61,305 bases of DNA, taken from positions 310,001 to 371,305 of the forward strand of contig CDROCS010002348.1 in the NCBI GenBank assembly GCA_977020255.1, in the 5' to 3' direction. Of this stretch, positions 47,741-47,945 are shown in pieces. The stretch's first letter is position 1. Every line of letters starts with the position of its first letter. The notes beneath the pieces are model-generated. The model was not told where the DNA came from, made no database searches, and was given only the letters and a program-made list of their open reading frames with translations. Made by a program: the position numbers and the translations under genes. This DNA comes from Obrimoposthia wandeli. Taxonomy: Eukaryota.

Positions 47741-47945
47741 AAATGGACAATTTGGTGCTTCTCTTCTATGACGTTTCATTGGGTTATCATTGTTTTCCCA
47801 ATTCCTAAACTTTACTCTACACCATACGCATCGTACTACTCTCATAATTATTTGTCGTGTCTCCGTTTAACATTTGTAAACCTGTTCTCGCCATTTACGT
47901 GACATTTCTTTTGAATAGTACGGTTCTAGCGATCTTCGTCTATTT
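47741..47945 (-). pseudogene. BIR (baculovirus IAP repeat) domain
   Basis: VRCVWCRVKFRNWENNDNPMKRHRREAPNCPFL gives an exact C-X2-C-X16-H-X6-C spacing with W, D.P and P.C.F; upstream RRRSL and MARTG (cf. RL.TF, LA.AGF) lie across frameshifts. Confidence 0.85.

Follow-up and report, generated by a model that had tools for sequence, protein, structure and literature searches.

The stretch at 47,741–47,945 of the Obrimoposthia wandeli DNA analysed here (61,305 nt in all, hereafter the window) is probably the first baculoviral-type inhibitor-of-apoptosis repeat (BIR1) of a full inhibitor-of-apoptosis (IAP) cassette in a Burro-like polyprotein, of which intact copies likely set the IAP free through protease cleavage and would so block apoptosis of the host cell. 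The window copy is itself broken, and much of the evidence below comes from full-length siblings elsewhere in the genome, from the pattern of substitutions among copies, and from related IAPs on Polinton-type DNA elements.

A BIR domain in a decayed retroelement copy

Translation of the window copy on the minus strand yields an intact zinc core, C57-x2-C60-x16-H77-x6-C84 (cysteines at 47,830, 47,821 and 47,749, histidine at 47,770), accompanied by the W, D-x-P and P-x-C-x-F residues, which bears out the C-X2-C-X16-H-X6-C spacing and diagnostic residues reported in a preliminary description of this DNA. The Pfam profile PF00653 matches 47,738–47,839 with a score of 40 bits, where the cut-off is 22.9 (E 5.9e-10), so that "no BIR profile hit", which that description had named as an outcome speaking against a BIR, does not apply. 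Retropepsin domains lie on both sides of the BIR, at 48,221–48,484 and 46,907–47,173 (Pfam), each with its D-T-G triad in 37–38 of 38 copies, and siblings encode the BIR in a single giant frame; the proposed location inside a retroelement polyprotein and between two proteases is supported. The window BIR is the first module of a cassette made up of BIR, BIR-like domain, UBA-like region and RING, the helices between BIR-like domain and RING being provisionally termed UBA-like.

The decayed copy spans ~54,669 down to 45,227 on the minus strand of an AT-rich window (genome size 1.35 Gb), with losses of ~1.08 kb at 49,801 and ~340 bp at 47,280. It is 3′-truncated, ending after RNase H at a fold-back repeat, and the integrase, phosphatases and 3′ LTR are missing. 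A primer-binding-site-like sequence presumably resembles the 3′ end of tRNA-Ile; no tRNA genes were found in the window. The parts of the copy, with coordinates accurate to a few codons, are as follows.

54,240–54,669, minus: 5′ LTR remnant; inner end at 54,240 as in full-length siblings, outer end meeting an N stretch, homology to near-identical copies up to 54,669
54,215–54,231, minus: primer-binding-site-like sequence, 8 nt inside the LTR, identical in siblings
53,620–54,126, minus: leader tandem repeats with a ~50-nt unit
51,901–53,571, minus: Gag region with a CCHC zinc knuckle at its end, frameshifts and stops (zf-CCHC E 8.4e-6 in sibling)
50,805–51,035, minus: weak ubiquitin/SUMO-like domain (PF00240 E 0.0049 in sibling, below cut-off)
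49,802–50,120, minus: front part of a Bcl-2-like region, the remainder lost with the ~1.08-kb deletion at 49,801 (PF00452 E 0.087 in sibling, below cut-off)
48,890–49,797, minus: in-frame Env remnant, Monjiviricetes/chuvirus-type fusion glycoprotein (PF24664 E 9.4e-18 at 49,502–49,756)
~48,950–49,030, minus: Env transmembrane (TM) segment (hydropathy in sibling)
48,600–48,614, minus: I-x-M-[LI]-R motif ahead of protease 1, putative cleavage site, conserved in 35 of 38 copies
48,221–48,484, minus: aspartic protease 1, D-T-G (PF13650/PF13975)
48,136–48,150, minus: I-x-M-[LI]-R motif between protease 1 and IAP, candidate cleavage site, in 35 of 37 copies
47,950–48,070, minus: IAP N-terminal leader, common to Polinton and stand-alone IAPs (alignment)
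47,738–47,950, minus: BIR1, zinc core intact, N-terminal half broken (PF00653)
47,385–47,545, minus: second, non-canonical BIR-like domain, frameshifted in this copy (PF00653 E 0.0074 in sibling; model pLDDT 80–87)
47,276–47,360, minus: start of UBA-like helical region (no profile hit), followed by the ~340-bp deletion that takes the RING
46,907–47,173, minus: aspartic protease 2, D-T-G, in the canonical pol protease position (PF13975/PF00077)
46,560–46,890, minus: spacer where Burro has a dUTPase-like domain (no Pfam match; position per PMC6431247)
45,768–46,240, minus: reverse transcriptase, YIDD, frameshifted (PF00078)
45,227–45,581, minus: RNase H; the element ends at 45,227 (PF17917/PF17919)

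The BIR of the window copy is not open. Relative to a sibling it carries a 1-nt and an 8-nt deletion that shift the frame of ~17 codons. A stop separates the two deletions, all three lesions fall in the N-terminal half, and because of these the copy is untranslatable as a whole BIR. Its RING is gone with the ~340-bp deletion at 47,276–47,286, and the copy differs from the sibling by 27 indels in ~4.5 kb. This copy of the element is dead and cannot make an IAP protein. Another contig holds two copies almost identical to it (96–99%) that share its truncation and flanks, which could speak for a domesticated host IAP gene, but the indels, the two frameshifts and the stop in the BIR, and the deleted RING refute such a gene unless the indels are assembly errors; we give this reading scarcely any credence.

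Several other features of the surrounding DNA were observed. The segment 40,181–59,061, comprising the broken copy and its flanks, occurs twice on contig C1501 in opposite orientations with 95–99% identity over the element, which may reflect either a duplication that followed the decay or haplotypes left uncollapsed. Fold-back (inverted-repeat) elements containing short repeats of their own occupy 41,814–45,227 and 55,592–59,061, and one of them coincides exactly with the 3′ break of the retroelement. A further, more diverged copy of the same LTR family (75–80%) starts on the plus strand at 60,347–61,290, and a 22/11-nt minisatellite and a short-unit tandem repeat (24,800–26,600 and 22,586–23,062) produce spurious long ORFs.

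The full-length element in sibling copies

Full-length siblings measure ~22.5–23.5 kb, with LTR pairs 94.5–99% identical and 4-bp target duplications in all three copies checked. They show the TG...CA LTRs, target duplication, primer-binding site, PR-RT-RH-IN order and YxDD motif of Ty3/Gypsy elements (Metaviridae). One natural copy holds an uninterrupted frame of 5,487 codons, with the Gag knuckle at 534, Env at 1311–1889 and proteases at 2063 and 2611. From the N terminus, the sibling polyprotein consists of Gag with one CCHC knuckle, the ubiquitin-like and weak Bcl-2-like regions, an internal signal-like segment, Env and its TM segment; in the middle come protease 1, leader, BIR1, BIR-like domain, UBA-like helices, RING, protease 2 and spacer; and the C-terminal part continues with reverse transcriptase (RT), RNase H, integrase, two DSPc phosphatase domains, the first with an HC-x5-R loop, and four more hydrophobic segments. 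Short RING-H2 ORFs follow downstream of the polyprotein. In two loci (L026:7372–8968 and L025:7495–8999), these accessory ORFs overlap a conserved 229-aa frame.

In siblings the BIR scores 51–59 bits and the RING matches PF13920 (E 1e-10; both Pfam), giving the BIR-RING IAP architecture with a C-terminal C3HC4 RING that has been deleted from the window copy. The preliminary description had treated the BIR alone as the unit that might be set free, but the likely functional unit is the BIR-RING IAP. The ~120-aa spacer between protease 2 and RT is conserved and has no Pfam match. For the Bcl-2-like region, PDB and Atlas searches returned no support, and a single-sequence model was uninformative (pLDDT 42). 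No MATH or ankyrin match was obtained from Pfam at E up to 0.1 in 19 ORF pieces.

A DNA search of the genome returned 3,514 candidates, 40 of which were scored (92–100% identity), while protein and family searches gave 11,197 to 20,173 candidates that are unverified and partly Polinton.

Selection on the cassette

When the 40 scored copies are mapped onto one natural copy, 29 have an open BIR and 28 an open RING; of the other RINGs, 7 are broken and 5 missing or incomplete. Only 4 copies are open all the way from protease 1 to protease 2. The four BIR zinc ligands are conserved in 40/40, 40/40, 39/40 and 39/39 copies. Variants private to single copies are close to neutral (dN/dS 0.45–1.46). 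Those common to at least three copies give dN/dS 0.31 for the BIR (8 synonymous, 10 replacement), 0.12, 0.13 and 0.22 (RING) for the other modules, 0.16 for the summed cassette and 0.04 for RT. The cassette is a whole IAP under purifying selection. This disposes of a recent neutral capture present only here, the other outcome that the preliminary description had set against itself, since the BIR is present in all 40 copies examined and the shared variants are under purifying selection.

Between two subfamilies, contrasted as 16 versus 4 copies (19 of the 24 open-cassette loci plus the reference, the pairs not being independent), BIR1 and leader show dN of 0.16–0.17 and dN/dS of 0.64–0.76, with 0.76 for BIR1, compared with 0.12–0.26 for the protease, BIR-like, UBA-like and RING parts. 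The dN/dS comparison that the preliminary description had proposed favours constraint on the cassette in the shared variants, and the BIR on which it had focused proves to be the least constrained domain. Judged from these substitution patterns, the fast change of BIR1 would fit either relaxed or diversifying selection.

Predicted structure and candidate processing sites

An AlphaFold2 model of the sibling cassette, built from an 8-row alignment, reached pLDDT 74–87 for BIR1, the BIR-like domain and the helical region, and below 45 for the RING. In Foldseek, the model matched solved BIRs (XIAP/DIAP1/cIAP) with probability 1.0, and the matches listed were BIR-containing proteins. Several residues of the BIR1 peptide-binding groove differ from what we take to be those of XIAP BIR3 and other type II BIRs.

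The motif I-x-M-[LI]-R occurs five times in the polyprotein against 0.13 expected by shuffling (0 of 2000 shuffles reach five), an enrichment that is inflated because the motif was noticed in the sequence before testing. One site precedes protease 1, a second separates protease 1 from the IAP leader (directly upstream of the latter), a third follows the integrase, another is at residue 4014 and one precedes the phosphatase; none lies between RING and protease 2. Out of sample, two were found in the related polyprotein P0082 (7 of 2000 shuffles reach that) and none in P0061, and relaxing the motif to [IV]-x-M-[LI] leaves no enrichment in the polyprotein (298 of 2000 shuffles). We regard the I-x-M-[LI]-R motifs as candidate cleavage sites. 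Free-standing IAP genes align with the cassette over its full length, and the limits of the cassette therefore fit a releasable protein.

Polinton IAPs and the origin of the lineage

Among the best 30 BIR loci in the genome, 28 match the cassette, and those that were translated are stand-alone IAP frames of ~300–340 aa or fragments. All six neighbourhoods read contain Polinton-type genes, namely pPolB, rve integrase with chromodomain, A32-like ATPase and jelly-roll capsid (Pfam for three). The Polinton IAPs are collinear with the cassette from leader to RING at 32–33% identity. Polinton/Maverick-type elements with a free BIR-RING IAP were located at C399:24,200–40,500 and C760:334,500–350,700 and on C3067, C718 and C5717 (L072–L081, L142–L147); they carry a TBP-like ORF (labelled by eye), and some have a DSP-like ORF that lacks the catalytic loop. 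In one Polinton, a DSP-like ORF is 32% identical over 155 aa to the retroelement DSP. On C3084 (L148–L150), three tandem ~7.1-kb units each combine an IAP fragment with pieces of Polinton genes and a DnaJ/zuotin-like ORF (labelled by eye).

A full HMMER search over 1.84 billion proteins gave P0001, P0002, P0005 and P0021 as the best collinear matches; word-index protein searches with the cassette found no match, and scans of viral contigs with P0002 and P0061 found no relative. P0001 could be a flatworm IAP. The comparison with other IAPs that the preliminary description had called for was made with a tree of BIR plus RING (145 columns, LG+G4, 51 of 65 rows, 14 having been dropped where the pattern was absent), in which bootstrap support is not fully settled and no named flatworm IAP is among the rows. 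The retroelement IAP, the Polinton IAPs and three HMMER relatives form one side of a long branch (0.98, 100/99), and the 41 other IAPs stand opposite. Within the clade, P0001 branches off as sister to all others (97/92), and the four Polinton rows form a group of their own (98/91). The retroelement IAP is not nested among the Polinton rows and keeps the BIR-like domain that Polinton IAPs have partly or wholly lost, for which reasons it is not descended from the present Polinton genes. Both a common mobile ancestor and separate captures of one divergent host IAP would be possible sources.

As a tentative proposal, which taken jointly we would not yet favour, the Burro-like IAP may not have come straight from a host gene. 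Its lineage would live on mobile elements and have been exchanged in flatworms by Polinton DNA viruses and giant retroelements with an env, perhaps along with a DSP phosphatase; the cargo would be dispensed by means of the duplicated protease and the repeated I-x-M-[LI]-R site, and BIR1 would be diversifying against host death effectors.

Element copies overwhelmed genome searches for host genes encoding an IAP or DSP; only BIR matches that we take to be survivin-like and BIRC6-like stood out. The mitochondrial-type COX1 with the most repeats in the assembly translates best with genetic code table 9, a code common to flatworms and echinoderms. A host CtBP gave matches of 61–80% to a mixture of animals, none of them named as a flatworm. 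Genetic code, composition and the element itself suggest a triclad host. The assembly also contains many stop-free COX1 frames, likely on bacterial contigs, and one table-5, mollusc-like mitochondrial COX1 (L071); these foreign frames are probably microbiome and prey DNA.

Proposed function and alternatives

In the mechanism that we favour, the internal signal peptide and the Env TM segment would leave the IAP, together with the protease on either side of it, facing the cytosol. The proteases would cleave at junctions such as the I-x-M-[LI]-R that immediately precedes the IAP leader. Once released, the BIR-RING protein may bind caspases or IAP antagonists, its RING would ubiquitinate whichever it had bound, and the predicted outcome is that element-expressing cells, probably stem cells, are kept alive. 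Release as a free anti-apoptotic protein, which the preliminary description had suggested, would agree with what the accessible part of PMC13465017 reports for Burro1.

The main competitor, which we consider unlikely, is that the cassette acts chiefly as an E3 ligase through its RING and as a signalling adaptor (TRAF/RIP-type, or controlling the element's own protein turnover or particle assembly), with BIR1 binding proteins and not inhibiting caspases. The tighter constraint on RING and UBA-like region than on BIR1 would suit such a role, as would the ubiquitin-like domain, downstream RING-H2 ORFs and phosphatase domains of the same element and the groove residues that set BIR1 apart from type II BIRs. 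Against it, however, stand the conserved zinc core and acidic D of D-x-P, the Bcl-2-like region of the same polyprotein, which points to apoptosis although the match is weak, and the accessible report that the Burro1 B-IAP protects against caspase-mediated death (PMC13465017). Far less probable, in our judgement, is that the cassette is passive cargo between two proteases, having only to stay translatable and serving no function of its own at present. Related polyproteins do differ at this place (no IAP separates the first two proteases of P0061, and P0082 carries four protease-like repeats), and BIR1 has a dN/dS of 0.76 between subfamilies, but the BIR-like, UBA-like and RING parts are depleted of amino-acid changes as well as of stops (0.12–0.26) and all zinc ligands are conserved, so that the copy comparison has already largely refuted the passive-cargo reading. 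Release of an anti-apoptotic BIR-RING protein remains our preferred explanation.

Comparison with known systems

That a retrotransposon carries an apoptosis inhibitor is already published for planarian Burro elements. The novelty that the preliminary description had implied for a BIR in a retrotransposon does not stand, as the BIR of Burro/GYPSM1 polyproteins was reported in 2007–2019 according to the accessible text of PMC6431247. The present element adds a further Burro-like lineage with different cargo, and sequence evidence for selection on a whole IAP while its first BIR changes fast. Its candidate processing sites make the release model directly testable, and the link to Polinton IAPs does the same for the origin of the Burro IAP, as host capture or as exchange between DNA virus-like elements and retroelements. 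With more than 10,000 BIR search candidates in one genome (unverified, retroelement and Polinton), IAPs on mobile elements may exceed those of the host in number by orders of magnitude. Twin proteases, phosphatase cargo, the I-x-M-[LI]-R junction motif, a fast BIR1 and a well-supported clade with the Polinton IAPs of the same genome were not found in the accessible literature; the twin proteases, phosphatases or Polinton link may be covered by Lee et al. 2026 and Grohme et al. 2018.

According to the portions of PMC6431247 at hand, Burro/GYPSM1 elements have BIR, BCL2-like and Ubi/SUMO-like domains, an in-frame Env between gag and pol, a dUTPase-like domain and an ORF of 4,873–5,140 aa. In the accessible part of PMC13465017, which cites Lee et al. 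2026, the Burro1 "B-IAP" (RING plus BIR) is described as protecting stem cells from caspase-mediated apoptosis, and Burro1 as occurring in Geoplanidae and Dugesiidae. As far as these descriptions extend, our element shares with Burro-1 to -4/GYPSM1 of Schmidtea mediterranea and the Dugesia tigrina element a single polyprotein of ~5,000 aa, Gag-CCHC, Env in frame between gag and pol, PR, a spacer before RT, RT-RH-IN, a BIR (plus RING in Burro1) and thousands of candidate copies. The order Ubi/SUMO-like, BCL2-like, Env is suggested here by weak matches below cut-off (E 0.0049 and 0.087). Burro elements exceed 30 kb, in contrast to the ~22.5–23.5 kb found here, where there is one zinc knuckle and MATH and ankyrin are without a match; conversely, the IAP-flanking proteases, tandem DSP phosphatase, four further hydrophobic segments and RING-H2 ORFs go unmentioned in the accessible Burro text. 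Compared with Burro by published description, the element is very likely Burro-like; it would work as Burro does and probably belongs to the same lineage. Because MATH and ankyrin gave no match and the length stays below 30 kb, it is not assigned to any of Burro-1 to -4.

The Polinton/Maverick IAPs of this genome, in the same clade as the cassette, are free ORFs of 301 and 341 aa on a DNA element. IAP and Bcl2 homologues have been noted in adintoviruses, as the available text of PMC8502044 states, and the accessible part of 10.64898/2025.12.11.693146 describes a Maverick expansion in Dugesia. Errantiviruses with a gB-type env (PMC13524379) share the Ty3/Gypsy pol order and a chuvirus/Monjiviricetes-like glycoprotein, but their Env is normally a separate ORF. 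In the main text of PMC13524379, "BIR" and "apoptosis" have no occurrences.

With cellular BIR-RING IAPs (XIAP, cIAP1/2, DIAP1) and baculovirus IAPs the cassette has in common the BIR fold, the zinc ligands and a C-terminal IAP-type RING; unlike them, it sits apart on a long branch, is intronless, is embedded in a polyprotein and has a non-canonical second BIR. Kuafuorterviruses, which we understand to be two-protease elements, were also considered. They were rejected on the basis of their size of 5–6 kb, compared with 22 kb here, and an RT motif of IADD/VADD/LADD, compared with YIDD (accessible text of PMC11673190). The polyproteins P0061 and P0082 have the same in-frame Env, 3–4 aspartic protease-like domains and no IAP; in P0061, zinc-finger-like repeats stand at the place of the IAP. 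Because both show such layouts, multiple proteases with changing cargo seem typical of this lineage.
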